64,000 bases of DNA, from positions 10,478,001 to 10,542,000 of the forward strand of contig CM022674.1 in NCBI GenBank assembly GCA_012295275.1, given 5' to 3'. The stretch is from Chrysomallon squamiferum. Its lineage: Eukaryota > Animalia > Mollusca. Position numbers and translations under genes: made by a program. The notes under the pieces were generated by a model. It was not told the DNA's origin and searched no databases. It saw nothing but the letters and a program-made list of their open reading frames with translations. Shown one piece after another: positions 1 through 63,785 of this stretch. Each line of letters starts with the position of its first letter. Within the stretch, counting starts at the first letter, position 1.

Positions 1-7973
<7,973 letters not shown>

Positions 7974-12541: not shown

Positions 12542-13275
12542 ACCAAAGACAAAAATAAACACGGTTATAATATTCATGTGTTTTTGCATAAACTAGATTT
12601 TGTGTTTATAATCAACCTTTTATATATGTGTGTGTGTTTGTATTTATGATTATTATTAGTAGTAGTAGTAGTAGTAGTTGCCGTAGTAGTCGTAGTCGTA
12701 GTCGTAGTATTAGTAGTAGTAGTAATTTTATTATTATTTGATTGTTTGTTTTATTTTTATTTATTTAAAATCATGTTAACGCATACATATATATACTGAA
12801 ATAAATAAATGAATAAATAAATAAAACAGGCACAAATTTAAATAAATAATTCAACAAATAATCAAATAACCACACAAACAAACAAACCGAAAGACGGGGG
12901 ATTCTTCTCACAACACACGCTTGATCATCGTCACGGTCGGTCCCGACATGGTGTAAGCTGTGAAGATCACTCACGGGTGGATTGTGCTTTGTGCTGACTG
13001 AGCGGAATTCAGAAACGAAAAAGATACTGTACCTTTTTTCTTTATTTATTTAGATTTAAATTCTTATTTATATTATTTGTAGGCTTTTGTATTATTGTTA
13101 CTTTTATTACTCTTCTTTTTATTTTCTGCTGTTTGCTATTCTTTTACTTTCCGGTATCTCAAATAACCGATATATCTTTTATCTTTATCTCGATCTGAAA
13201 GTGAGTTGCGTTCAGCTTTAGTGTTTTAGTGTTTTTTGAATTAATATAGAATTGTCTATATATTTAAAAAAAAAA

Positions 13276-13316
<41 letters not shown>

Positions 13317-13395
13317 GCAATTTAAATATATTATTGAAACCGATATACTTTTTTTAAAAACACACAAAACAACAACAACCCATACATACACAAAC

Positions 13396-14863
13396 ATGGC
13401 AACAAAAAACATTTACAGCTCGGGAATCGATACCTCGGAGATGGAAACTAGGGTTCCAAAACGACCCAGGGACAGGAGCCCTAGCTCCGTCGAAAAAACA
13501 AAAAACAGGAAACAAAAGAAAATAATCGATATCACAGTCGAACACACACATTCCGAAACTGAAACTGAAGAACAAAAAATTATTAATAGAAATCTCAACA
13601 TTTTGGCAAGGCTAAGAGAATCGGATAGCGAAGACGAAAGCGAGCCAAACGCGTGGAAAATAATTAAAAGAAAAAAAACAAAACACACCCACAGCCGAAC
13701 CACCATCGCAGTTCACAAAAAAAAACTACACAAACATCGACAAACAGTTGCGCTATCTAATAGAAGCGCAAATTCACATCATGGACAAAACGACAAAAGT
13801 CAACAAAAATAATAACGGAAAAGAAATCTACTTCGAAGTAGATACAAAAACACTTAAAACAATTGGTCCCAACATCACAATCTGGGACGAAACATTTGTT
13901 ATCAGGGTTTTAGCCAAACTAATCCCCGATACCAAACAACCACAGAAAACACCCACACCACAACCCAGAAAAACACTACTGGCAACACCGCAGACAAAAC
14001 AAACGCCTACTACCAAACAGCAACAACAACAACCTAAACACACAACAAAATCAAAAGAAACAACATACAAATATATCTCCAAAGATTTGGGTTTTTATTA
14101 CCCACACGCTAACAAACTAGATTTTTTTGAAATATTCAACAAAGAGCTGGTAGAACAAACAAAATCAACTCTAGTCGGTGTGGAAATGTGGAGAAAACCA
14201 AACTACTGGACCACACTGACATTCAACAACAAACTTACAAACACAACCATCACCATCGATGGGTACAAGTACACACTGGCAGAAATGAGGCCGCAGTTGC
14301 CCAAGTGCGGCCACTGTCAGAAATGGGGGCACATCACAAACCAGTGCTCCCACAGAAACAACCAGAAACATTTAACATGCAGTTTCTGTGGTGGAAATCA
14401 CCACAGAAACTCAGGCCAATGCCGGTCTCTGGCAAAATGCGCAAATTGCCAGGGACCACACGAATCGCACTACAAGATGTGCCCAGCAAAGATGCAAGCA
14501 AACAACAAATTCGAACACAACAGAAGAGACAACAAAATTATACAAAACGTCAACAAGAAATGCCAGAAAATAGAAGAAAAAACCAAAACCATCATAGAAA
14601 CAAAAATTAAACAACAGAACGACAAACCAAAAGACAATCTCGACAAGGAGGTCAGGATTGCAGAAATACACAAAATCATTGTCTGCCTCCTGATTGAGCT
14701 TCAGAACATCAGGACCAACAAAGGAAACACGAATGATGAAGCCAATTTGGAGCAGACAGTAGCCCACATAATTGAAGACAGCTTGGGCTTCAAAATCGAC
14801 ACGCAGGACAAAAGACTAAAATTACACACAGACAGGAGAAATCCTACAAGCACAAAACAGTGA
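13396..14863 (+). pseudogene. LINE ORF1 gag-like nucleic-acid chaperone (one frameshift)
   Basis: ATG at 13396; likely frameshift in the A-run near 13717-13725; knuckles CGHCQKWGHITNQC, CSFCGGNH..QC, CANCQGPHESHYKMC. Confidence 0.88.
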
Positions 14864-17800
14864 ACAAAAACAAAACAAAAACAAACAGTAACAACCATTT
14901 ACAAACTCTTCACGACAAGCACGCCAAGAACACAGGTCTCTCCGTCCTTCAATGGAACGCCAAAGGCCTTCACTCAACAGGCCACGGAGACGAACTACTA
15001 CACTTCCTGGCCTCCACTACAAACACACCGGACATAATATGCATTCAAGAAACATGGCTGGGACATCACAACAAAAACAACAAAACAACAAAAACCTTTA
15101 CGATCCCCGGGTACCAAAGTCATTACGTCAACAGATACAACAGCACCCGGGGAGGCATCATGACTCTCGTCAAACAAGACGTTCCACACACCAAGCTGAA
15201 CGAAGCCAAAGTTCACGCCAACATCGAAATACTCAGCATCACAATACACAACAACAATCAAAACATCGACATCATTAACATATACAGCCCACCCACTCCC
15301 GCACTACACACCATTCAAACCCAAGATTTAAATAAAATAATCACAACAAACAACAAGGTCATTATAGTGGGCGATTTCAACTGTCACAACACCCTATGGG
15401 GTGGCTCGACAGACGACAGCCCTGGAATCGTCCTCGAAGATTTCCTGGAACAAAACCAGCTGGTCTGTTTGAACGACGGAACATTCACATACACTAGCGA
15501 CATCAATGGTGGCCAAACCGCCATTGATGTAACATTCACAAGCAAGGACATCGCAGCACTCTCCGAATGGCAAGTGCTCGATGAGCTAAACAGCGACCAC
15601 CACCCGATACGCACCAACTACAACAGCAAGAACACCTTCTCGGACAGATCCATCTTCACACCGAAATGGAACTTCAACAAAGCAGACTGGGAAGGCTTCT
15701 ACACAGCATGCAGAAACATCAAATCGCAGAACTCCAACGACATCGACGCCTACTGCGCATCACTCACCAACACGATACACGCCACTGCAATCAGATACAT
15801 ACCCAAAACCAGAAAATGCACCGGCAAAATATCCACTCCCTGGTGGACGGAACGCATAGAAAACAAATGCAAGGAGAGAAACAAATACAGAAGACAATAT
15901 AAAAAAGACAGAAATCATTCTACGCACGAAAAATACACAATATCAAAAAAAGAAGTTTCCAACCTAATACTCACAGCGAAACAAGAACACTGGGAACTTT
16001 TTTGCAACAACATCAACCACAAAACATCAGTCAAAGACATGTGGGCCAAAGTAAAAAACATTCAAGGAAAAAAAACCCACAGAATTAACACTCTCGGCAA
16101 AAGCAACATCGCATTCACTGACAAGCAAAAAGCGGACCTACTCAGCCAAACCTTCGCCAAGTCCAGCAGCAATTCGAACTTCCCACTGAAGTTCGCAAAG
16201 AAACAACTGGACAACCAAGCAATCGGCGAACAGTCCGCAGACACAGAAAACAGAACATATAATCAACTATTTAACATCAGTGAATTAAAATATGCACTCA
16301 AAAACAAGAAAAGTACAGCCACGGGGCCAGATAAAATAAGTTAAACAATATTACAACATCTACCAGACGAAACCCTACTGGTTATACTCGAACTTTACAA
16401 CACAATATGGACAACCGGCAAGATTCCAACAAACTGGAAACACGCCGAATGTTTCAGCTTGCCCAAACCACACAAAGATCACTCACTACCCAACAGCTAC
16501 AGGCCGATCACGCTGACGTCACATATGTGTAAAACTTTCGAAACAATGATTAACACACGCCTAAACCAGCATTTAAACGACAACAATTTAATCAGCAAAT
16601 TTCAAAGCGGCTTCAGGAAGAAACACAGCACTAACGACCAGATCACACGCCTGCATACATCAATTAATCAATCTTTTCGAAAATCAAAAAAAGTTATAGC
16701 AGTATTTTTAGACATAGAAAAAGCATTCGACATGGTATGGAGGGAAGGACTGTTAATTAAATTAATAAATAACAACATTAAAGGCAACATGTTCAACTTC
16801 ATCAAAGACTTTATCAACAACAGATCCATAGCAGTCAAAGTAAACGGTCACACCTCAGAGAAAACGACAATCGAAAACGGCATCCCCCACACTCGCCCAC
16901 ACTCTTCAACATCTACATCAACGACATCGTCACAGCACTCGACCGACAAGACAACGACAGAAATCCGCCAAAGGAGCCGATAAACACAGCACTCTTTGCA
17001 GACGACTGCGCCTTTTGGCGGGCAGGAAGATCGACCGCAGCAATACAGAAACAAATACAAAAAGACTTAAACAACATAAACGATTGGGCGTTGAAATGGG
17101 GCATAAAGATTTCTCTCTCGAAAACGACGTGCCTCCTTTTCAACAAGAAATCAGACAACAGTAAGATCACTCTCAACATCGACAACAACTTCATAACACA
17201 AACAAAGACATTCAAATTTCTAGGTGTGACATTCGACAGTCAACTCAACTTCCGATGCCACATATATAACATAATTGCCTCCTGCAAAAAAACAATCAAT
17301 CTTCTCAAGTTAATTTCTGGAACCAGTTGGGGAGCAAACGAGTCAACGCTGATTTTGATACACAAAGCATGTATTCTCTCCAAGCTCGACTACGGAGCCA
17401 CGGCTTACTCGAATGCTCCCAAACTTTATTTTTAAAAAACTAGATATAATCCAATCAAGTGCCCTCAGGGTGATCGGCCACCTGCCAAACTCAACACCAT
17501 CCGACAGCCTCCTGTCGGAATACAGCATCCAACCATTAAAATACAGAAGAAAACTGCAGCTACTAAAATACAACCTGAAAATACACACACTCAACACAGA
17601 CCACCCGGTCAAGGATCTGGTCCCCGACGAACAAAGGATAGGACAACTCTTCAAATCGCATAGTCTACTACTATCGAATTTCCCGACAACAGCTAGCGAA
17701 ATCGAAAGGGAAACAGGAATAGGTGAAATGCCACTGCCGGCATACCACAAAGAAAGAAAACCAACAATCAACACACCTTTCCTGATCAAAAGAGAAACTG

Positions 17801-18745
17801 ACAAAACAGAGATCCAACCATTCAAAAAAATCATTTTTTTTGGCAGCAGCAAACGACCACTACAAACAACACACGCACATCTACACTGACGGATCCAAAA
17901 ACCCAGACAACGGGAGAGTAGGATTCGCCTTCATAGCTCAAAATCACACAAACAAACCCACATGCATACAATTCGGCCGTATCAGAAATCACCTTTCGGT
18001 ATACACGGCCGAGTTGGTAGCCATCATCAGAGCCATGCTGTGGGTAAAACGCAACAACAACAAACACACAGTCATTTTCTCGGACAGTCTAAGTTCCGTG
18101 ATCTCAATACAATCCGGAAGTTCAAGCAGACCAGACCTGCTCAGCAAAATACAACAACTACACGAAGAAATACAACACAACAATAAAGAAGTAACCATCG
18201 AGTGGCTCCCAGCACACGTCGGCATCCTCGGCAACGAACTTGCCGACCATTACGCCAAAGAGTCACTCACCATTAAAGACGAAGACATCTGCACAGACAT
18301 ACATTACGGAATAAACGAAATAGTCTCCATCGCTGCCAAACATTACGACAAACAATGGCAGAACGAATGGAACAACACGAAAAACAAATGGCACTTAAAC
18401 ATCAAACCACTCGCCAAAACACCCAAAATCACACTCGCCAACAAACTACACAACAACAACCTCACCAAAGTCAGAATTGGTTACTCAAACAACTTAAACG
18501 CAATTCTATACAAACATAATATCATCACATCACCCAACTGCAGTTGCGGACTCTCAGAAACCATGAAACACTACTTGTTTCACTGTCCAAACTTTGCCAA
18601 GGAAAGACAAGCACTACGCAATACATTGGAGGAACTAAAAATCGAGTTCACGCTCCAACACATCCTGGCACCAAACGTGAAAGACAGAGAGTTAGTCCTC
18701 GCTGCAGTAACAAATTACATTCTCAAAACAAAACACAAACTATAA
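14860..18745 (+). pseudogene. LINE ORF2: apurinic-like endonuclease, reverse transcriptase, RNase H, C-terminal Zn knuckle
   Basis: EN motifs QWNAKG, IQETW, GDFNCH, SDHHP. RT motifs YRPITLTS, QSGFR, FLDIEKAFD, LFADD (near 16992-17006), KFLGV. RNase H motifs IYTDGS, AEL, FSDS, WLPAHVGILGNELAD. Knuckle CSCG..ETMKHYLFHC. Lesions: TAA 16342-16344, deletion removing the QGS motif near 16890, frameshifts near 17430 and 17840. Confidence 0.95.
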
Positions 18746-24340: not shown

Positions 24341-25544
24341 CTTAAGAAAGAATGGGCAAAAAAAAAAAAAACGAACACCACAAACTCCTTAGCTATCAGT
24401 ATCGCTACGGTATATCGCTACAGTATATCGCTATAGTATATTGCTAAAGGAGATATAAATACTCTCGTGTTAGGTTGATATGGGAGAATAGGTTTTAAGT
24501 CCATGTAACGATAAACAATATAATCGTGACATATTCAGTTTTCTGCAACGTTTAATAAGTAAGACTACAATTCTATGCTTATGGTAAGTACCCGTATGTA
24601 CTTCTGTATTTAATCTCTGAACTACGTCAGATGTTCTCTGTCCTTACAAATATCACTAGCAGCAGAAGAACAAATCGTAAAAAATATTTAGATATCCAGT
24701 AAAATGTCTACTAATATGGCCATGATCGAAATTGCAACATTACATAAATTTACAACATAGCTTTCGTTGGTTAATATTTACTTACTTACTTATTTAATTA
24801 TTTAATTATTTGTTAGTTTCTAACTTTGTTTCTTTGTTTGTTTATTACATTATTGTTATTGTTCTTATCTTTTTTCCTTTCTCCTTTTTTTGACCAAGTG
24901 GCAAAATTATTTTATACTTATTATTTTTTAAATACCGATTATCTATTTCATATTTATAATACTATTTTCATGGATTTAAACATGTACAAGAAAGAGGTAG
25001 AATGCTTGGCAGCTAGAATTTTACAAATAGTACACAAACTTACCAAAGTTTTGATAATTCAGTATTAAATGTATTTTAAAAAATAGAAAAACTGTGAATG
25101 TTATATTTAATGATGAAAATACCACAGCTGGTGAAGATTTAAGAGAAATCACTGATTCACTGTTATATTTTATTTCAGAAGTATATCTCACTTTGATAAA
25201 TTTGATGATAATGACGTCTTCGAAACGAGTGGGTGGTATTACCAAGATGATCTTCCAGAACAGGAACAATTTGACAGGAAAATCACAGCAGATACAATAC
25301 AAGATTTAGAAGAGAAACCACTTAATTTGAAAGTTAAACTAGATCTAAAACAGGTAGCAAGGTAAAAACAACTTGATGTCAAAATGAAAAGAGTTCCGTC
25401 TCAAAAACAGCAGAAACAGCTTGATGGGAAGAGGAAAGCTTATCCAGTACAAGATGCACAGAAGAAAAAACTTGGCGTGAAAATTACAGCAGATCGAGCA
25501 CGAATTTCACAATCTGTTATTCACAAGAACAATTACATGTAAAA

Positions 25545-25850
25545 GTGAAAGCAAATCCACATCTTATTTCACAGCAGAAACAACTTGACGTCCAAGTCAA
25601 AGCAGATACAGTACAAGTTTCACAGCAGAAACAACTTGATGTAAAAGTGAAAGCAGATCCAGTACAAGTTTCACAGCAGAAACAACTTGATGTCAAAGTG
25701 AAAGCAGACCCAGTACAAGTTTCACAGCAGAATCAACTTGACGTCAAAGTGAAAGCAGACCCAGTACAAGTTTCACAGCAGAATCAACTTGACGTCAAAG
25801 TGAAAGCAGATACAGTACAAGTTTCACAGAAGAAACAACTTGATGTGAAT
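25545..25850 (+). repeat. 51-bp coding repeat (17 aa, QVSQQKQLDVKVKADPV), ~6 copies plus degenerate copies upstream
   Basis: acagcagaaacaacttga-like unit at 25571, 25622, 25673, 25724, 25775 and 25826. Confidence 0.95.
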
Positions 25851-27544
25851 GACAGCCTTGAAATAGTGAATTACAGCAATGAAATAGAATGTGTGCTCTG
25901 TGAGAAATGTGTATGGACTCAGTGTGTAATACATTCAAATACACACAAACAAAGATATCTACCTTACCAGTGGCAGGTGAAAATTTGTGACAAATGGGTG
26001 AACTTTGACATAGTGGAGAATGAGATGATCGAGCAGTGTTTTTGTAGTCTGAAGTCAGATACAGGAAATATAGAGGTTAGTTAAAAACAACCAGAAGCGA
26101 TAAATGAAATTTCATTTATATGGAATAAAGTATAAGTTTTAATAACACTGACATATGTGAATGCAGTTTTACTTTTGTTTCAGAGTACATCCTTGAGAAG
26201 GTATTGGCCACAAGTTCAGTCCTCCTTGGATCCTGATCTAACCAATGTCCTAAGCTTTTCTCTTTTTGAAAACGTATGTATTAAAAATAATTTGAAGCAT
26301 AATAGTTTATTATGCCATCTGAGAAGATTTCCTCTCTTGTTTTAAGTATACTCTTTTACTATTTTTATTACTTACTACAACGCAACAATATGTAAACATG
26401 TTAGATGTTAATGGTATTGCAATTCTACTATTACTTTTCTGTGCCACTAATTGAAATTTGCTATATCTATATCTATAATCTATACTCATATATATAGACA
26501 GACATACACTCGTTGTTTTTTCAGTTTTCAAAGAATTTCACTATTGCATTTGCCAGTAACTTCATTCCAATTGTTGTTGATTTTCACTTAATGAGAGTTT
26601 TAGTTTGTTTGGAACTGGGAGTGGTTGATGTCAAAGTTCAGGGTCTCTCAACAGCATCGTATGTCACTGGACAAGAAGACAACTTCACACAGCTCACACA
26701 GTGGTGTTGGTATTTTGAGTCAGACTCTGGAAATTGGCTGCCTTATGAGCCAGTGAATATTCAATTTATTTTATTGTTGAACTGCTTTCTTCTTAAACAT
26801 CTTATTTATTTTATTTTACTTTTTTATTTGTTCTATTTATTTGCTTATTTATTTCCTTACTTTCAAAATTTTTTTTTCAAAAACCAACATTATACGTAAC
26901 AAAGATATATAATATTAAAAGAAATGAAAATTTATAAAACCACAATTTAAAAAAAGTAAGAAGAAAGAAAGAAAGAGATGATTAAAATGTTCATGTTAAT
27001 ACCTATAACATTGTTATTCTAATATATTAATAGTTATCAAATAAAATAATCACATATCTCATTCATACATAGTCAAATAACTACACATCATGACACACAC
27101 CTGAAATTACATTACCTATAATATATATCATATGATATATCACATTACACGTTCTATATTATATAAAACAGCATATTGTGTTTATTTTAGGAAAGTCTGC
27201 AATATACTCTTGAACTGAAGTACTTGACTGTGCAACCATTTTACAACTTTGAAACAGACAAATGTCAGTATGAAATAAATTTTAGCCAGATGACCCAAAC
27301 ACATCTGGAAACATTAAAACAAAGACGACTGCTGAGGAGACCTGCTTTTGTTTCCAGTGATGATGTACAGAGACAAAAAAAAGTGTAAACAGAAAAATAT
27401 TGTACAAGAACGATAACTTTCGATTAAGATATTTTGTACCTCATTTTCACTTATTTTAAATGTTTTTCTCTCTTAACGTTTTAAACCCTTGTCTCTCGTT
27501 ATCGTATATCTTAATATCCTACTTCATTTTTGTTTTAACTTTTT

Positions 27545-27639
<95 letters not shown>

Positions 27640-28087
27640 TTACTTATTTTGATTACATAATAAAATTAAGAGTTCATCGATGTCTTTCGTCGAAGAAGTT
27701 TCCACGTTCACCAACTCTCCCAGACAACTGGTGGCCTCTAGACTGTTACCAGCCAGTAGAACTGGTGAAACTAAAACTTGATGACTTGACCGAAGACGAG
27801 GAGGTGAAAACTGTGATGAAATAATTTTTCTCTACCATGAACAAATCGGAAGTAAAATTGAAATTTTTGTTTCGCATTCAGAATCTACCCATGTGGGAAC
27901 GGTATTGTAGGTAAGAGTCCACAATTTATGACACTCTTTACATACAATTAAATTGCCTAAATACATTATGTATACTTCAAAATATGTTTTATTTATTTAT
28001 TTATCATCATCATTATCATCATATTTTGTTTTGTCCAATCTTAGTTCATAAATAATTTATTATATATGATTTGTACTGCCTCAGATA

Positions 28088-28320
28088 CAGGTGTTTAATC
28101 AGTATGTCATCCTTAAATAATAAATCAGTGATATATATTTAATCAGTATGTACTCATTAAATAAATAATCAATGATATACCTTAATCAGCAAGTTTTCAT
28201 TAAATAATAAATCAGTGATAGATATTTAATCTGTAGGTACTGATTAAATAAATAATTAGTGATCGATGTTTAATCAGTATGTTCTCATTAAATAAATAAT
28301 CAATTATCGATAGTTGATTA
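28088..28320 (+). repeat. ~45-bp intronic minisatellite, ~5 copies
   Basis: Unit tttaatcagtatgt..cattaaataa(a)taatcagtgata repeated. Confidence 0.85.
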
Positions 28321-28954
28321 ATATTTTCTAACAGCCATCTGTAGTTTTATGAAAGAAATAGTTGATCTCCAAATAGTTGAGAAGTAATCTATAATATTTG
28401 TAAATATTATGAATCTTTCGAGACCAAATGTATTTTTCTCTTTTGCAGTAAGACAAATGCAATGTCGATGAACAGGGATGATGAAGGAGATATTAACGAA
28501 AGATTTCTCTTTCATGGAACCAGTGATGACGTCAGTGTCATACGTGGAATCTGCCACAACAACATCGATTTCAGACTGAACGGCAAACATGGAACATCGT
28601 ACGGAAAGGGAGCTTATTTTGCGCGGGATGCCAAATACAGCCACTGCTACGCCACAGGATCACATTGCTTCATGTTCATTTCAAAGGTTCTTATAGGACA
28701 GTATGCTAAAGGTAAAAGTTCATATCGTCGGCCTCCTTCTAGGAAAGGACATTTTCTTTATGATTCCTGTGTCGATGATGCAAATAATCCATCAATTTTT
28801 GTAATCTTTGACACTTCTCAGAGTTACCCACTGTTTCTACTTCAATACTCTGTGGAGACCAGATCAGAATTGCCTTCATCAAGCTCCTCAGTACCTGTTT
28901 CACAGTCGATTACTCCTACCATAAATTCTCAAATGCAGACTTCAGTTAGCAGCA

Positions 28955-29400
28955 CAACCAATAATTCCAACACAACACCAAAAATTCACACTTCTACTTC
29001 TACAGTAAATACTTTGAAGACAACACCAATATTTCACAGTTCTACTTCTACAGCCAATACTTCCAACACAACACCAAAAATTCACAGTTCTACTTCTACA
29101 GCCAATACTTCAAACACAAAACCAATATTTCACAGTTCTACTTCTACAACCAATACTTCCAACACAACACCAATATTTCACAGTTCTACTTCTACAGCCA
29201 ATACTTCCAACACAACACCAAAATTTGACAGTTCTACTTCTGCAGTAAAACTTCCAACACAACACCAAGATTTCACAGTTCTACTTCTACAGCCAATACT
29301 TCCAACATTACAACAAGATTTCACAGTTCTACTTCTGCAGTTAAACTTCCAACACAACACCAAATTCAAATTCTACAGTAAATACTTCCAACACTTCACC
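28955..29400 (+). repeat. 48-bp coding repeat (16 aa, NTSNTTPKFHSSTSTA), ~9 copies
   Basis: Visible in ORF 28462..29418 and in the DNA (cacagttctacttctacagccaatacttccaacacaacacc). Confidence 0.95.
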
Positions 29401-30148
29401 AAGTTCAACTTCCACTGATACTGCTAACGCATCATACCTATGTGCGATTCTGTGACATTTTGAAGCACATTTATACCTCTTGAAATTATAATTTTTATTT
29501 ATTTCTTGTTTTTGTTTTTTACTTTAATTTTCTCTTAAATAATCTCGTTGTATTTGTTTTTCTGTATGCAGTGTAGATTTTTATCAATACTTTGTTAGCG
29601 GTTTTGTTATTTAGGGCAAGGACATCTTAACACACATGAACCCTGGAAACTTGCCCAGGGGTCACATTAGTATGTTGTGACTTACAGTCAATAAATAGCT
29701 ATACTATACCACTCTCTACTATACTATACTATACTATAATATAATATATAATAATATAATATAATATACTTTTATATAACGTAATAAAACATATTATGCT
29801 GTGAAGATTTGTTATTGGAAATGGCATATTTAGCCTATGTTTCACTAAAGATAATAAACATTATTAAAGTTATGTTTGATGATAAGAAGTGGACACTGTG
29901 TAGGTATGCGGCCCAATGAACAGTTTTTTTCCACAGGGCTATAATGCATTTAAGATGACCTTGTTTATTTTGTTAATTACTGGGAAGAATTTGTTTTGTT
30001 TCGTGCAACCAAAATTGAGAAAAACAACAAAGTTCTTTTTCTATTTCATATTTCATGTGCACATTTCAATGTATCTGTTCTCAAACTGATCAGTTGTTGA
30101 ATACCACTTCTGCTAACTCCACAAGTGCAGGATGTGTAGTTTCAAGCC

Positions 30149-50597: not shown

Positions 50598-53500
50598 TCA
50601 AAATGTATTTATGTTACTATATTTAGCACCATGCTCCAGTAAATAGGAAACAATTTCCCTTCTGTAACTCTTAGCTTTGTCAAGAGGAGTTTCACCTAGA
50701 CCATTTTTAACATTTACATCAACACCTTTTTTCAATCAGTGCTGTCACAATTTCTAGATTTCCATGTTCAACTGCTAAGTGCAAAACAGAATTCTTATCA
50801 TTGTCTGTTAAATTAGTGTCAGCTCCATGATTTAGTAAAGCCAAAGCTACTTTTTTCTTATCAGAGGAAATAGCTGGGTCTTCAAAAAAATCAAATTTGT
50901 TGGGTGTGTATTTCAGAAATGTAATAAGAGGAGTTTCACTTTGCATGTCCTTACAATTTACATCAGCACCTTTTTCTATCAGTGCTGTCACAATTTCTAC
51001 ATTTCCACCTTTAGCTGCTAAGTGTAAAAGAGAATTGTTATCACTGTCTGTTAAATGAGGATCACCTCCTTGGTTTAGTAAATATAAAGCTATGTCTGGT
51101 CTGTGACAGATCAAGGATACATGAAGAGGAGTTTTCTGTTCAGTGTTAATTGCATTTATTATTTTTTTTCTTACTTCTTTCACAACATCTATATCAATTT
51201 CAGAAGCTATGTGCAATGCTGAATTCTCGTGGTCATCTTTTATATTGATATCAGCACCATTTTCCAGTAACAACAAAGCTATTTCCTTTCTGTGTGTCAC
51301 TGCGTTTACAGCTTCATGAAGTGGAGTTTTTCCCTTACTGTTTACTGCATTGACATCAGCATTTCTCTTTATTAGTGATTTTATCATATCTAAGTCACCA
51401 CGCAGAACTGAGATGTGGAGGGGTGTGTCTGAAGGCAACAATTTGAAACTAATTTTGACACTTAACTGTTTGAGTTCAATTTCTTCTTCAAACAACTGAA
51501 TCAATTTCTGATTAACAGCTATATTCACATTAGGATCAGCTCCTTTATCAAGAAGACTCTGAACAACACCTGCACTGTTACACATCACTGCTGCTTTCAG
51601 TACTTTACTTTTCTTCCAGTTGTCATCTCTATCATTACACCTCTGCTCAATGAGAAAATTCACTGTATCACTGGCTCCCCATACTGCTGCTGCTAAAAGT
51701 ACTTTATCTCTGTTCTCATCGATTTAAACAATCAGGTTTCAGTTTTACTATTTCTTTTATAACACCAGAATTATTCTGACTAGCAGCAATAATAGCAATG
51801 TCTTTCATTTTGTTTATTATATCAATGGTAACCAGTTTCTTGAATGGATGGCTTACATCAACAACTTCAAAAGTCTTTGACTTCCCAAAATACCAGTTTC
51901 TTGATTCACGTCTCAGTTGTCTATGGAACCTAACCAATAACAGTTTAATGGCTTTTTCCTTGATTACATTGTTGTGTTTCTCATGTTCTATCTTTTCAGC
52001 TAACAGACATGCAATCTTCATATTACCTGAAAAAATAGAAGCAAGTAAGAGATGTGAACACTCATTCAAACTAATATTTCTTTTGCACTGTAACAGTTCT
52101 TTGAGTATGGCAGCACTGTCTGTTTTTGAAGAAATAGCTGCACGCAATGTATCAATTGTTGGAATAACACCTGATTTTAGCAACATTCTCACAACATCTT
52201 CATCACCAAACAAACAAGAAATATTCAAAAGTTCTTTTTTCAGATTTGTTAATTTCATTTTACACAGATTTTCAGTGAAAAATCTTGACAATATTCTTAA
52301 TCCCTTCACAATACACTCACTTTGAACAGATGATGAAATTTCAAAATATTTTTCAGTATCCAAATACATGTAACTAGAACACTCTGAATAACTGTCAAGA
52401 AGACATGAAATATTTAGCAATATTTCATCAAGATTGACTACTTTTACAGATGATATACACAAATATTTACTTTCATGTTTATGTAGTTGTCGATGCAGTA
52501 TTTCAGACAATTTATCATTAAAGTATTTTGTCTCTATGAGATACTTCACAAACTCTTCATCTTTCAATGATGGATGAGAAATAATGTCTTTGGCATTGCT
52601 TGATGCCAACAGTTCACTAAATCTCCGAGCAAGAGCATCAAAGCAGTTAGGTTTCACAGTCATTGTAATGTGACTTTTGTTAGACACTCCAGGTGTCACA
52701 ACATATTCTAACAACATGTAGACAGGACACATTTCTAACAATTCTGCTGCTTTCTTTGGAAACTGATGAAAACACCAGAAACAATGAGTCAAACACTGAC
52801 TGGTGAATAAATGTGTATTCATTGTCAGAACACTTCAAATAGGTACCACACATTTCATCAGCTGTTTTCTTTACATCTGTGAGACAAGTGTTTTTCAGAC
52901 TCAGACAGACTCCCTCTAGCAGTCTTATTAATGTCATTATGTCACTGTCAGAGTCATTTTTAAATGGGTCCAGTAAATCAATCCTGAGACTGTCTTGCTG
53001 GAACAATATCAGCAGTAGAACCAGGTAATTGATCTGTGAAGATTAATCATTTTTCAAATTTTCCAGTTGTTTTGTGAGATATTCTACAGGTTTCTCAAAA
53101 AACTTAACTCCTCTTTTTTGTGCATCACTTGAATTAACATAATACACACACACCTGAGGAAATCCTAACTCTGTACAAGAAGAGGAAATGACACTGTCTT
53201 TATCATCTTCATCCATTGTAACATTCTTTTGTTCGAGATACTTGTTTAGAATTTCTAACTTCTCATAAGAATCCAGAGAACATACATTGCTCTGTAGGTC
53301 AAGGACATGGTTTTCATTGAACAGATCAAATTCCTTCAGATTGGCTTTAATTTCTGTAAATATTTGTTTTCTTAAAGTAATAATACATCTCACACTCCCA
53401 TCTTTAACAAGACTCCACACCTCTGGAAATAGCTGTTCCCAACATGACATAAAATCGAATACAAGATTAGTTTTACCAAATATATCATCAATGAGAACAA

Positions 53501-54284
53501 TACATGGTTTAACTTTAGACACAGGAATGTATTTGAAATCAGAGTGATGAGTCATGAGGTAAGAGTCTATTTTTTCTTCTTTCTCTATTTGTTTAATCAT
53601 GTTCAGACCTAGAGTTGTCTTTCCTGAACCTGGACTTCCTACTACAATCACAACACCATTCTTTTTCAAAAGTGTTAGTCCTCTTTCTTCTGCTCTTGTT
53701 TCAACATAGACTCTCCTCTCAATTAAGTTTAACAGTGACCTGGTATACTCTGTATCACAACATTAAAACAAATAATATTTATTATTAACTTATTTTAAAT
53801 ATATTTTATTATTTAAATATAGATACTATAATTTTTAACCAGTTATCATATGTGAAGTTTGTAAAATAAAGCAAAGTTTTTTTGTCATAATTTTAGTTCA
53901 TCAGAATTTAATGACAATACTATGATATAACAGTTTTAAATGATGTAAAAATAACAGTGATTATCTTCTTGTAAATTAACATTTTTCAGAAATAAAAAAC
54001 AAGAACAATAAAAAAAAAAAAAAATACCTTTCATACTGGACAGTCATGCATCAGTCTTTGCTGAAATGATATAAGAATAAAACAAGTAAATTTATATTAT
54101 TGATGATGAGCAAAAGAGAATTATTAAAGTGAAATGTACAGTTACTCAGTAGTTCATTCATGGAACAGTCAACATATAACATTATTATTATCTTTCTGAT
54201 TTATTTTAGTAGAATTATTACTACTAGTATTAAAACTACTGCTGTTGTTATTTCTCACTATTGTTACTTAGTTATTGTTATTGT

Positions 54285-55827: not shown

Positions 55828-57951
55828 ACAAACATTACCATCTCAGAGTGCATTTATTTCTTAATTCTATGATACAAAATTCCTGAATGTTTCGGCAAAT
55901 TATTGATTAGGTATTCTTTTGTAATGCTACTTATGAATGTTTACAGTTTTTCTTAGCAAATGCGTTTCTTGTAATGACATGGTGACATCAATATTAAAAA
56001 CTGCTTCAACATCAAAATAGATGCATGATATATTGGAAAGGATATTGTATGTGAATGCCAAATATATTCATATCTCATAAGAAAAAAAAAAACTTGTCTC
56101 CTTCAGTATAAGTGGTCACATGTGTGGATGTTGTTCATTTAACAGCGTCTGAGAGAAAAGCACTAATGTCTATTCTCTTATTAAACATGTACAGAAAAAG
56201 AAAACTTTCACTTTTCAACTTACTAGTTAAATTGTTTCTGGCTCCTATTAGAACATTTCCAAAGTGATGTATGTTTACTGTTGGATTTACAAGTTGTATT
56301 GTTTGAGTATCTGTGAAAGAGAGTAAATACATTTTAAGGACAGCATACAGTATTAATACACTGAATTAAAAGTATTATTGCATATAACAATATCTCATTC
56401 AAAAATGTTGTTAACTGATTATGTGCAGGTGCTATGAAATAAGTATTACTTTAAAGTATTAAAGTGTTTAACAGTAGATACAAGATTGATTATAATGGTC
56501 ATGATGAAGCAAATAAACAGTAACTAGATTGTATTTTGCTTTACTTTTTTAATCTGTGAAACAAAAACACGGTAACAACTTTAAACTTAATTCATTGTCA
56601 GCATAACTTTTAAAATGTCAATTTTCTAATGCCTAAGATGTAACTAAACAATACATTGAAACAGTGTGTTGATAGAAATGTATATAGTACTTTTAGAATT
56701 TACCAGCAGTAAAGTAAACAATATATTGAAATATTCTATTACGACAAATATAAAAATAATGTTGACTCTTTACAATTTCCTATTAAAAAAGTAAACAGTA
56801 CATTGAAATAATGTGTGTATTACCAGAACTGCTTGACACAGGTAGTTGTAAATGATGCTCTGTATGTGTGATGTCAAAGGAAGACTGAGATGTGATGCCA
56901 GAGAGAGATACACTTTTCATATTGTCTAAGAGAGACACAGCTGTCACAGTCTCTGCCGAAGAAACAGCTGTCACAGTCTCTTCAGAAGAAACAGCTGTCA
57001 CAGTCTCTGCCGAAGAAACAGCTGTCACAGTCTCTTCAGAAGAAACAGCTGTCACAGTCTCTGCAGAAGAAACAGCTGTCAGTCTCTGCAGAAGAAACAG
57101 CTGTTACAGTCTCTTCAGAAGAAACAGCTGCCACAGTCTCTGCAGAAGAAACAGCTGTTACAGTCTCTTCAGAAGAAACAGCTGTCACAGTCTCTGCAGA
57201 AGAAACAGCTGTTGTGTTAGAAGAATCTTCTGAACTCTCATTTTTGTCATCTATATTCCCTGAGCTGTAAAAAATAATATAATGATTTTTTATATAGAAA
57301 TGAAGAAATGAACTGTTTTATTTACTTATTTTAGTTACTTTTATATGGGTCAGACATAAGATTTGGGAACAGTCAGATAACAACAAAAAAAAGAAACCGA
57401 CTGCAGTCACTTCACTCTCTACTCTGTCTTATTAACAACAAGTGATGTTTCATTTATACCTACCCACAAACAGTACAAACTATTTCATACATCAGCTGTT
57501 AAGCACTGCTAAAATGAAAACAGCTCATGATTACATCAGCAGGCATTGATCCAAATATCTACTACATCTTGCACACTTTAATAGAGATCTACATCTAGTA
57601 CCTTGTATTAATACTAGCATTGACTCATAGACTGTATTCTCAATTTGGTTCTATAAATAAATGCCTGGAACATTTTTTTAAAGTAATCAAATAAAAAAGG
57701 CTTAAAATAAATATACTCATTTTTTAAAAAGAGGTGTTTGATCATGTTATTTAGAAATACTCAGGAAAACACAATTTCACAAACCTAAAAACATAGTTCT
57801 AATTAATTAGTCTTACCTCATTTTGGATTTGTTCTTTTCCATCTGTTTAGAGGGGTTGGTGATGGGCTGACTGGGGCAGGTTCTGGCTCTGGGTTCCTGT
57901 GTTCCTCAGCTGTTCTGCTGCTCTGATTTACTAGTGTTATTCCACATTTTT
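50598..57951 (-). pseudogene. NLR-like STAND NTPase (nSTAND3-like) with C-terminal ankyrin repeats and an N-terminal low-complexity + RHIM-like region, disabled
   Basis: Exons 57951-57817, 57264-56824, 56310-56224, 54060-54028, 53749-50598 chain in phase once a 2-nt deletion near 57080 is restored. Motifs YVETRA, Walker A GSPGSGKT, Walker B VLIDDIFG, ITLR, LGFPQ, YTFIHQSVFD; ankyrin repeats (TPLH..GADVN). Lesions: TGA in two small exons, TAA 53043-53045, frameshifts near 52770, 51725 and 50728. Confidence 0.88.
56935..57212 (-). repeat. 27-bp coding repeat (TAVSS[A/E]ETV), ~10 copies, alternating variants
   Basis: gaagaaacagctgtcacagtctct unit; one copy near 57080 lacks 2 nt. Confidence 0.95.
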
Positions 57952-60379
57952 CTAAACATTACAAACATACATGTTCAGATAGTTCTGGATTCAGCTTCAT
58001 GTGAAGCATCATATTGATAATATTATAATCAATTCCTATCTTAGTTTTGTCAGACCTATTACTAAATTATATAAACAATACAAATATAACTATACCATGA
58101 ACATTTTTTTGAAGTAATATTCTTAGTCTTGTCAACTGTACTAAATTATTTTATATAAACAATACAAATTAAAATATCACAAATATACACCTGAACATAA
58201 TGAGTGAAAATGTGACAAGAAATTACAAAGTTGTGATGACTGACAACAGAATGATGTTCTATGTTTCTGAATGACAGTTACAGCTGATTTCACTGTGAGA
58301 GGCTAGTGTGTGAGGTTTCTTTGTTTTTCTTAACTGCAGCATGCTCACATATCACATTTTGAACTCCATTGTTTAGCACATCTCTCATTCAGTGTCAACT
58401 TGGCACAATGGTGAACATCATAAACACAAAGATGACACAAAATAAGAATGGATTCAACAGTTATGCCTCAAACCTACATGACATCAGCTTGACAACAATT
58501 ACAGTCATCAGTCCATTAGTGAGCTCAACACTCTACATCCAACCTAATGTTGTAACTCTTCAAGCCTTGGCCAATCATGAGTCCAGCACATTTGTGTCAT
58601 CAGTGAGCATTTTATGCACAGAGTGGAAGTGGAATCAGCCTAGAACTGGGAATTAGTTTAGTTGACAATTTGACAAATCCAACTTTTAACTGAAGAGATG
58701 AGCTGGATCCTACAGGCTGAATGTTTACTTGTCACTGAATCCTTTAACAACAGATGTAATCTAGAGACATTAAGCAACATTTTCTCTCAGAAACAGATTT
58801 CTTAAACTATTTTATTAACTCTTCAGCTCCACAGTTTGGAATGATGATTTTGGTGTTAAATAGTACTTGGTAATTATGTGACAAAACAGTTATTTTAAAA
58901 ATCCTGTGTTTGAAATAAATTCACAACTATTGTGAATAAATATTTTTATTTTACACTAGTTTCACTTTCTTTCCATTGGTTATTAATAAACACAATGACA
59001 ATAGATTCAAAAGTTAAAAAGTTTTTTTATTCACAAAAATCATGATTATTAACTGATTTACAACAGATTTATTTTAAAAATGGTTAACAAACAAATCGAA
59101 GATATTTTACAAATTATTAAAAGGATAATGAGCAAACAGTTAGGAATGATTTTTCGTTCTCAATGTTCAATCATGCCTGTACTGGGCACCCTATTCGAGT
59201 AAATTTAGAAGTTAATTTCACTGATAATTAATTGCAAACATTTCAATTAAAATTAATAATCATTAAACATAATTATTATTAATAAGCAAATATGAAATAC
59301 TATTTATTATAAAAACAAATTTAATTTAAAATGTAGAATAATTATTACCTATATGAAAATGAAAAATTATATTAATAATAACAAATTACATTTAATTTAA
59401 AATACATGTATGTAAAATAATTGTTAAATCATAATTATTTTCAGTACGAAAATGTAAAATAATAATTATAACAAATTAGGAATAAGCTGAACACTCACAA
59501 TGACTGTTTTATGGCTAAACACAAAGCCTGGATTTCATCTAGTTTTATCACAGTTCAGTTTTTTCCCTTTCATGGTTTAATAATGTGTTATGAATCTGCT
59601 AATGTAACAATATTATAACAGTAATCTGTCGTGAATAGGGAAGTAAAAGCAATTGTTATTCTAAAATATTATGAATGTGCAAATTAAAGTATTATGCTAA
59701 TATATTATGAATATACAAATTAAAGTAACTTTTGTAACAATTAGGAATGCGGAAAAGCAAAATATTTATTACGTATTTTTTTTTTTTTTCTGAATATTCA
59801 AATGTAAAATATAACAAATTATGAATGATCAAATGTTAACTGAAAAAAAGACAAATAAAAATGTATTACAACTTTCTTCATTTCAGAACATTTTAATAAC
59901 AGCAGTATGTAAGTGCATGTATGTATGTATGTATGTATGTATGTATGTATGTATGTATGTATGTTTGTATGTTTGTAGTCCATATACTTGTATGTGTATG
60001 TGTTTATGAGCATATACAGAAAAGATGAACACAATACAAGTCATTAAAACAATTTAAGTGGGATTTTGTATATATACTGCAAATGTAAAGAAATGAGAAA
60101 GAGTTGTGTTAACATATTCAAAAACAGGTTTAATAACAGGTGTAAAGTTATTCTTCAAAAATAAATTATGTATATATATATATATGGTGGTTTTTTGGAA
60201 TATATTATATTGATAGGTATCTGGAATCATGGATACAAGGTATTTGTGAAGGCAAACATACATAGATATGCACAAGTATTGACACACGTATACTTACAAA
60301 CATATATATATAGGCACTAAAGGACACATATACACACATATACAGACACACACACACACACATACATACACATACATAC

Positions 60380-62400: not shown

Positions 62401-62665
62401 TGTAAAGATAAAAATTATAATAATAATAATAAATCATTTTAACCTGAATGATAGCAGAACAATAAGAAATAAATGGTAATTTTATTCGTTTCCGATTTCT
62501 TCTGGAACTATCATTGGGTTTTTTAATACTTATAATTTTGTTTTCAGGCAATAGTTTTATCCAAAACATATACACAACATTTTGCTATTATAATTTCTAC
62601 CATTTTCAGCAGAGGCACTACACTTTTAAAAGGTTGACGAAAATATTATAATATATTGAGCAATC

Positions 62666-63124
62666 ATGTCTTCAAAAAAAAAGGGGAAGTCTATGCCTGC
62701 TAAACTGATGAAAAAGAAATTTTTGTTCGAAGAGGCTAAAGTAAATGTCGAAGAACTGAAGGATAATTATGAAGTTCAACAGCAAAGTGCGCCTGATAAT
62801 GTGATCCAATTCGAGGACCCTGTTCCAAATGATTTTACATTTACCAAAGGAATTGAATATTTGGATGATGATGACTTTGAAGAGGAAAAAATGAAGTCCA
62901 AAAGGAAGAATATAAAAACGTACTCTTCAAAGACCTCTGTTGTGAAAACTCAACAAGGAATGTTGAATCGTCACCCATCTCAGAGAGTTAAACAGCTTTC
63001 CGTCAGTCTTAAAACTGAGTATTTGGGCCGTAACGACCTTTTTGCATCTTCCAACAACAACGATTATTATCCCTTGAACAAACTGCAGGTAAGATCCATC
63101 CTATTTAATGAATTAGAATGAACT

Positions 63125-63185
<61 letters not shown>

Positions 63186-63350
63186 GCTGATTTCAGTTAT
63201 ACATCACAGTTGTTCAAGTATTCAGTGTTCTATTTTATGTTTTAATTCAATAATTAATAATTATATTTATTTGTCCACATATATATATATATATATATAT
63301 AGAAATAACTAATTTTTACACTTTATCAGCAGATTTTTCCTTCTAAAATG

Positions 63351-63383
<33 letters not shown>

Positions 63384-63619
63384 TGGAATTATTTATTTAT
63401 TTTTATTTGCAGGATGTGGTTAATAAGCTGAAAAGTAAATATAATTTTGAGCTGAATTTCTCTGGCATAAACCAGCTGACAGATGCAGTGTTTGCAACAC
63501 TGCTAAAGCTACATGATGGAGGTTTTGACAATGTGATGAAGATAAATCTGACAGGATGTTACCACATCTCAGACAGAGGGGTGTTCTGGCTTACAGTTTG
63601 TTTTAAAAATCTTCACTCA
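62666..63619 (+). CDS. 5' part of a protein with cysteine-containing (F-box/AMN1-type) leucine-rich repeats; continues off window
   Basis: Exon 62666-63088 (CAG|GTAAGA) joins exon 63413-63619 (TCA|GTAAGT) in phase 0; LNFSGINQLTD and INLTGCYHISDRGV match the LRR_CC pattern. Confidence 0.7.
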
Positions 63620-63785
63620 GTAAGTGAAACAGTTCATCACAGAGAAATTGTAGCTAGTGTTTTTAAAAAATTAAGCAATTCTATTAGGATACATGACACA
63701 CAGCTTTGTTACTTACCCTTTTTTTTAAATGTGTTAACATGGTATAGAAGTTGATATTTTTCAAATGTGGTGTAATTTATGTTAC

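Follow-up and report, generated by a model that had tools for sequence, protein, structure and literature searches.

We studied a 64,000-nucleotide (nt) stretch of the genome of the snail Chrysomallon squamiferum (GenBank assembly GCA_012295275.1, contig CM022674.1, positions 10,478,001 to 10,542,000 of the forward strand), further referred to as the window; positions are counted from its first letter. The minus strand of the window carries a broken gene for a STAND (signal transduction ATPases with numerous domains) receptor, bounded by a head-to-head reading frame on the plus strand that begins near 62666. The gene belongs to a multi-copy family built of a linker, a motif similar to RHIM (RIP homotypic interaction motif), an nSTAND3 NTPase and ankyrin repeats. 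We lean towards the view that the intact members of this family are sensors resembling nucleotide-binding, leucine-rich-repeat receptors (NLRs) and signal via RHIM-type amyloid, the window gene being a broken member.

The motif is encoded by an 87-nt phase-1/1 exon at 56310-56224 (minus strand). Sequence inspection reveals a pyrimidine tract with an AG acceptor on one side and a GTAAGT donor on the other, and paralog RNA contigs are spliced at both sides. The exon bounds, phase and translation agree with those given in an earlier interpretation made from the letters of the window (the sequence-only reading). Exon residues 12-28 (56228..56278, minus strand) form the RHIM-like core, delimited using the spacing from 10.64898/2026.02.19.706818 and PMC4262963. 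Deep mutagenesis of RIPK1 and RIPK3 is reported to place nucleating aliphatic residues at −8, −6, 0 and +2, and in RIPK1 also at +8 (10.64898/2026.02.19.706818). In the window copy the aliphatic tetrad consists of V12 (−8), I14 (−6), V20 (0) and I22 (+2). It is followed by G23 and then by N26-N27-L28, that is, Asn, any residue and an apolar residue; L28 provides an aliphatic side chain at +8, the second-interface position of RIPK1. The core tetrad reads V-L-I-G, with Leu at residue 21, and the canonical (V/I)-Q-(V/I/L/C)-G is not satisfied by this copy. The motif is embedded in a low-complexity region approximately 30–40 residues ahead of the NTPase.

Five runs of one organism were available for assessing splicing: four RNA runs of one study and run X5, the kind of which is unrecorded and the contigs of which cross introns like DNA. 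Contigs of X1, X2, X4 (RNA) and X5 were aligned to window positions 56130-56400 and their ends were compared by hand. Splice-end counts come from 21 of 34 loose ends, and contigs less than 80% alike are missed by this procedure. A contig of X5 is identical to the window at 56196-56326 (0 differences in 131 letters). Among the RNA pieces listed there is no identical contig, and those at least 99% alike over the exon region number none of 6 in X1, one of 11 in X2 and none of 5 in X4; therefore, the transcripts come from sister genes. In at least eight contigs (two from X1, three from X2 and three from X4) the 3’-end of the upstream Ser/Thr-rich exon is joined exactly at the acceptor of the motif exon, with 26 of 30 letters matching the window at the join in X1. 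On the 3’ side, three of the eight informative contigs among those listed continue into a counterpart of the 33-nt exon of the window gene (11/12, 20/27 and 18/22 matching letters), and both that reach the position of its in-frame stop codon have CGA instead of TGA. One contig passes straight from the motif exon into the NTPase exon in the correct phase (10/11 letters). Four more (X2 records 8, 10 and 11, and X4 record 16) enter other small in-frame exons that were not found in the window; thus spacer length varies within the family. Of two further ends, one breaks off where the exon ends and the other is unspliced. Inclusion of the exon in the STAND transcript, predicted beforehand, is thereby seen in contigs of paralogs rather than of the window copy itself. 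The proposed path through the 33-nt exon into the NTPase exon stands in part: three contigs enter the counterpart, but the exon is not obligatory, being omitted in one contig and replaced by different small exons in four.

Twenty-two exon variants, taken from 40 of 78 variant rows, were mapped to codons, and 12 of 19 indel rows were considered. Leu21 is replaced by Gln in 9 of the 13 covering RNA contigs among the rows listed (3/4 in X1, 4/5 in X2, 2/4 in X4) and also in six contigs of X5. Hence most expressed paralogs have a V-Q-I-G core, the canonical tetrad. V-Q-I-G is given among the canonical RHIM tetrads in PMC12119088. The tetrad positions stay aliphatic in the RNA rows listed, while Phe17 is mostly Cys in the paralogs. 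Within residues 12-25, non-conservative changes in these RNA rows affect none of five fold-critical positions versus seven of nine others (Fisher p = 0.01); when X5 is counted, p becomes 0.06. The in-exon indels of X5 fall into four haplotypes (grouped by equal depth) of 6, 6, 6 and 3 nt, all of them multiples of 3 (chance probability 1/81) and all ahead of the core; indels in the flanking introns are 1–2 nt long. The expectation that the motif is conserved among paralogs thus held, the RNA contigs keeping the core mostly as V-Q-I-G.

The large terminal exon (50598..53749, minus strand) encodes the NTPase, a helical region and the ankyrin repeats. The nSTAND3 domain at 53232..53708 (minus strand) has intact Walker A and Walker B motifs and matches PF20720 with 92 bits against a cut-off of 27.2 (E = 3.9e-26). 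The ankyrin region at 50598..52231 (minus strand), which is likely the sensor, matches Ank and Ank_2 in two frames (E = 2e-45). A structural model of 235 NTPase residues with a predicted local distance difference test score of 96 shows the AAA+/STAND fold. Its top STAND-class match is bacterial Avs5 (9jap; Z 12.6, root-mean-square deviation 3.7, 205 aligned residues); Avs5, Dark and a plant resistosome have Z of 11.8–12.6, and DnaA and ClpA, 13.1–13.6. The gene fits the NLR-like tripartite layout of an N-terminal motif part, a STAND NTPase and a repeat sensor, with the NTPase and the ankyrins on one exon. It falls outside a strict definition of NLRs (NACHT or NB-ARC plus leucine-rich repeats), given that its Pfam matches to NACHT (17.5 bits, E = 0.004) and NB-ARC (15.5 bits) are below cut-off and its repeats are ankyrins.

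A search with the NTPase yielded 254 representative proteins at E of 1e-10 or better. The closest are from the vent snail Gigantopelta aegis (41–46% identity), followed by abalone and bivalves, and a tree built from 45 selected NTPase domains places the window protein together with nine Gigantopelta proteins (support 100/100), which points to a gastropod origin. These mollusc proteins (Gigantopelta, Haliotis, scallops, freshwater mussels, Solemya) share the NTPase and ankyrin core, are annotated as uncharacterised and differ in the N-terminal slot, where HEPN, caspase, SAM, Death, DED-like (death-effector domain) modules or short motifs stand. Pfam families found ahead of nSTAND3 are HEPN_DZIP3, DUF4559, SAM, caspase and Death; HEPN_DZIP3 is present in 4 of 31 relatives scanned, among the five top families listed. 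This variety of effector and adaptor domains fits the remark of Kajava et al. that invertebrate RHIMs occupy the usual place of death-fold domains (PMC4262963).

The set of relatives comprised 152 proteins; the NTPase start was located in 150 of them, and 83 have at least 35 residues before it. The spacing of the aliphatic tetrad plus Gly occurs ahead of the NTPase in 6 of these 83, compared with 0.96 in shuffles (1 of 1000 shuffles reaches this number). Ungapped scoring of the exon against the relatives gave weak matches, 9 of 83 at p of 0.05 or less. Motif patterns composed after viewing the sequences (13/83 vs 3.9; 8 vs 1.2; 9 vs 1.2; 4 vs 0.75) were not counted as tests. Scans of metagenomes for the NTPase and for the exon gave no matches.

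Several individual relatives deserve mention. The gene model of P0011 (3380 aa) contains the motif-NTPase unit twice, and both times a segment with a V-Q-F-G core stands ahead of the NTPase; this tetrad variant is reported as functional in RIPK3 (PMC12119088). Scallop P0156, P0061 and P0155 have a DED-like domain followed by a motif with RHIM-like spacing. P0156 is a 247-aa isoform lacking the NTPase, its DED-like match (E = 5.7e-5) being below cut-off; judging by its domains, it is possibly a DED-motif adaptor or decoy. In Gigantopelta aegis P0001 and P0002 the N-terminus is a strongly hydrophobic helix, after which come basic residues, a feature clear in two of the 152 proteins, which suggests membrane-anchored receptors.

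A number of results weigh against amyloid signalling by this family. Databases do not recognise the motif. The sequence-only reading had proposed scoring the peptide with the Pfam RHIM profile; the exon matched no Pfam family at E up to 10 and no RHIM was found in 20 homolog segments, in a scan of the Leu21 version of the peptide with HMMER filters that lose weak short matches. Pfam includes a RHIM model. A PDB sequence search with the exon returned no RHIM structure (0 matches), a PDB search with a profile of seven motif sequences returned gyrase A alone (E = 1.1–1.5, taken as chance), and ESM Atlas gave no usable match for the exon or for residues 85–122 of P0051. The same seven-sequence profile, run against 7986 candidates in search of the partner kinases or pore-forming proteins that had been expected to share the motif, gave 13 matches, of which 12 contain nSTAND3 and one is the short DED-like P0156; none is a kinase or a pore-former. 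Among relatives the motif is carried by a minority. The full pattern (aliphatic at −8, −6, 0 and +2, Gly at +3, then Asn, any residue and an apolar residue) is found in none of the 83, and the strict core in three, compared with 0.67 in shuffles (31 of 1000 reach three). Of the six spacing matches, that of P0071 seems by eye to lie within a death-effector-like domain and is probably spurious, and three others form a single clade on the tree, so that Gigantopelta P0011, freshwater mussel P0051 and the scallop group are left as separate lineages; P0001 and P0002, with their long N-termini, have a loose look-alike seen by eye only. Selection at the codon level is not apparent either: 3 of 22 listed substitutions are synonymous, versus 24% expected (p = 0.18), which gives no sign of purifying selection. 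One expressed subfamily lacks the Gln variant and has Asn one position earlier; it includes the sole contig joined directly to the NTPase exon. The join between the 33-nt exon and the NTPase exon was not seen among the loose ends listed. Finally, all RNA evidence consists of contigs from one study, with 40 of the 78 variant rows and 21 of the 34 loose ends considered; among 15 of 189 rows in a wide contig alignment there were no splice joints.

The leading alternative is that the motif β-stacks solely between receptors, stabilising the active oligomer or filament with no RHIM partner, and that the output comes from elsewhere. The empty partner search agrees with this, as do the wide differences among N-terminal motifs of the relatives and the scallop proteins P0061, P0155 and P0156, in which the DED-like domain paired with the motif could do the signalling. 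In the window gene no other effector domain was recognised in the frames scanned, which leaves the motif as the sole candidate for the output, and the canonical core of most paralogs suits compatibility with RIPK1-type RHIMs. We regard this alternative as unlikely.

Slightly less probable still is a conserved element of a non-amyloid nature, such as an auto-inhibitory β-hairpin docked on the NTPase or a short linear binding motif, the resemblance to RHIM being convergent. Such an element would account for the lack of a RHIM profile match, for the β-prone Asn/Ile/Val/Gly segments of many forms that precede nSTAND3 in relatives, and for the interchangeability of two small spacer exons. It would leave unexplained the exact −8/−6/0/+2/+3 spacing, the Gln of most paralogs and the downstream Asn and apolar residue; moreover, many relatives have no such segment, which argues against required docking.

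A chance resemblance, arising from AT-rich codons of a linker exon under loose constraint, is very improbable. In its favour, the DNA has 30% GC, the paralog differences are mostly non-synonymous and the single full-pattern occurrence in the six frames of the window, which is in the motif exon, is not significant window-wide (shuffled windows have 0.3 matches on average and 2 at most, n = 40). Against it, the motif stands directly before the NTPase (the probability for any one exon frame of 29 codons is near 4e-5), the paralog Gln improves the match over the copy in which it was first noticed, core positions are spared, and indels preserve the frame.

We therefore return to an amyloid-signalling STAND-ankyrin sensor as the preferred reading. 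Splicing and conservation of the core in paralogs speak for this proposal of the sequence-only reading; the Pfam match and the partner are the parts that did not materialise. STAND proteins oligomerise upon ligand binding. In the proposed mechanism a ligand would bind the ankyrin repeats, and the NTPase would switch and oligomerise as in other STAND proteins. Oligomerisation would crowd the motifs, which would stack into a cross-β seed; the seed would recruit a partner with a RHIM, for which a mollusc RIPK1-like kinase is the most plausible candidate, and the outcome would be NF-kB activation or cell death. Avs5 is reported to be activated by filament formation (PMC11897194), and by analogy filaments of this type could plausibly crowd the motifs. 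The partner class exists in molluscs: in RIPK1 of the zebra mussel the RHIM is conserved, and the C-terminal part of this protein is reported to need it for maximal NF-kB activation (PMC12119088). The RIPK1 list in that paper names Dreissena and Lingula, and does not include Gigantopelta, Haliotis, Patella or Mytilus, so that a gastropod partner is hypothetical. A broader scheme can be put forward tentatively, and we rate it as doubtful: molluscs would have an expanded, polymorphic family of ankyrin receptors of the Avs5 type (nSTAND3), and RHIM amyloid would couple these receptors straight to a RIPK1-like kinase. The RHIM would be a symmetric cassette exon that trades places with modules of the HEPN, caspase or death-fold kind, and loop residues that vary among paralogs would tune the choice of partner.

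The sequence-only reading regarded this arrangement as known mainly from fungi and bacteria. It is not limited to these groups, as the motif-NACHT-repeat layout was already predicted in an animal: Kajava et al. (2014; PMC4262963) described BF82280 of the amphioxus Branchiostoma floridae as a predicted RHIM-NACHT-repeat protein. BF82280 and the snail gene alike encode an animal protein in which a RHIM-type motif takes the adaptor position ahead of a STAND NTPase and repeats at the C-terminus, the function being predicted in both. They differ in that BF82280 has NACHT, whereas the snail gene belongs to a multi-copy protostome family with nSTAND3, in which the motif has a phase-1/1 exon to itself. 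RHIM and P-loop NTPase domains are also reported among annelid connexin-like proteins in a 2026 preprint (10.64898/2026.06.13.731801), and these may hold a closer precedent. In fungi, the N-terminal motif of NWD2 is reported to template amyloid on its effector, which is proven (PMC4344463), and ankyrin sensors occur in fungal NLRs (PMC12881547). NWD2/HET-S and PNT1/HELLP (the latter with the RHIM-related PP motif) resemble the snail gene in that an amyloid-type motif lies on the N-terminal side of both a STAND NTPase and a repeat sensor. Their motif is at the extreme N-terminus and the effector gene is adjacent; in the snail gene a long Ser/Thr-rich linker precedes the motif, and the 64-kb window has no second copy of the motif pattern and no recognised motif-bearing effector. 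The RHIMs of RIPK1 (zebra-mussel RIPK1 included), RIPK3, ZBP1 and TRIF are similar in the V/I-Q-V/I-G core (in most paralogs), the tetrad spacing, the Asn with an apolar residue, and the low-complexity flanks; none of these proteins is a STAND NTPase, and the window copy has Leu for Gln and no Pfam call. Avs5 (AVAST type 5), the best structural match of the STAND class, level with Dark and a plant resistosome, is described as carrying nSTAND3 between an effector and a repeat sensor (10.1101/2025.07.08.663546). It resembles the snail gene in this layout and differs in having an enzymatic Sir2 effector and TPR/PPR repeats instead of a peptide motif and ankyrins.

Thus the RHIM-STAND-repeat layout is already known, while its protostome, nSTAND3 and cassette-exon form is new; the splicing seen in RNA and the Gln core of the paralogs are new as well. 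A literature search without most subscription journals found nothing on RHIM-bearing nSTAND3-ankyrin proteins in molluscs; among the matches listed, publications naming nSTAND3 deal with bacteria, fungi and a mosquito virus. Fungi provide the proof that an NLR-type receptor can signal through amyloid; in bacteria such signalling is inferred, in amphioxus it is only predicted, for a single protein, and a 2021 review asks how far it extends in animals (PMC7889193). An expressed multi-copy family with a canonical core supplies defined peptides and, in mollusc RIPK1, a possible partner for testing the link from STAND to RHIM. If the link is real, it would constitute an animal NLR-to-RHIM amyloid pathway of the kind experimentally shown so far only in fungi, and would supply invertebrate RHIMs with an input from upstream and necroptosis signalling with a possible ancestral setting. 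In addition, a large and apparently unstudied family of nSTAND3-ankyrin receptors in molluscs is brought to notice.

Upstream of the motif exon, a 441-nt exon at 56824..57264 (minus strand) contains approximately ten copies of a 27-nt unit; Ser, Thr, Val, Ala and Glu make up 80% of its residues, and judging by this composition it is likely a disordered linker. Its 3’-end is the one joined to the motif exon in RNA contigs. Farther upstream, a 135-nt phase-2/2 exon at 57817..57951 (minus strand) is predicted from splice sites and phase only, and no RNA join of this exon was seen. A weak candidate exon at 58191..58267 (minus strand), with a donor site and two stops, would encode an N-terminal hydrophobic helix (hydropathy 2.5). 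Its role as a membrane anchor is unproven: its likeness to the N-termini of P0001 and P0002 is reached by 686 and 590 of 2000 shuffles, and other AT-rich stretches have higher scores. No death-fold family was matched in 19 chosen minus-strand frames of at least 35 aa in the region 57.8–62.6 kb, from which short exons could escape. These results agree with the earlier description of the upstream part as Ser/Thr-rich and devoid of a recognised death-fold domain.

The window copy has at least seven disabling lesions, all on the minus strand: TGA at 57908-57906 in the predicted 135-nt exon; a 2-nt loss near 57080 in the Ser/Thr-rich exon; TGA at 54046-54044 in the 33-nt phase-1/1 exon (54060-54028), which was identified by its splice sites and by the counterpart following the motif exon in paralog RNA; and, in the terminal exon, a premature TAA at 53045-53043 together with changes of frame close to 52765, 51721 and 50727. 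With three stops, a 2-nt loss and three frame changes, this copy is disabled, as had been claimed, and would be a silent or non-functional remnant. Assembly error is unlikely as the source of the three nonsense codons. As for the extra base at 51721, a small share of run X5 has it (33 of 2549 in depth), whereas the three RNA runs aligned lack it.

Other features of the window are as follows. In the head-to-head neighbour (62660-63754, plus strand), the first exon is rich in Lys and Glu and has near-identical RNA contigs over it, and a second frame resembles leucine-rich repeats by eye; there is no Pfam match. Exons of a PARP gene at 25425-29418 (plus strand) encode a PARP catalytic domain (E = 1.8e-16), WWE_4 (E = 8e-4) and a Ser/Thr-rich repeat tail; this gene resembles antiviral WWE-PARPs. 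A non-LTR retrotransposon at 13240-18745 (plus strand) has endonuclease, reverse transcriptase and RNase H domains spread across several frames, with a gag-like Cys/His-rich frame ahead, and is broken by a stop and frame changes. On the minus strand, at 2059-2568, 3837-4304 and 2-607, two near-duplicate exons for a Cys-containing domain are followed by a hydrophobic membrane-like segment, with no Pfam match. Part of a fibrinogen C-terminal domain, of the kind found in FREP/ficolin-type lectins, is located at 5627-6211 (plus strand; E = 2.4e-7).

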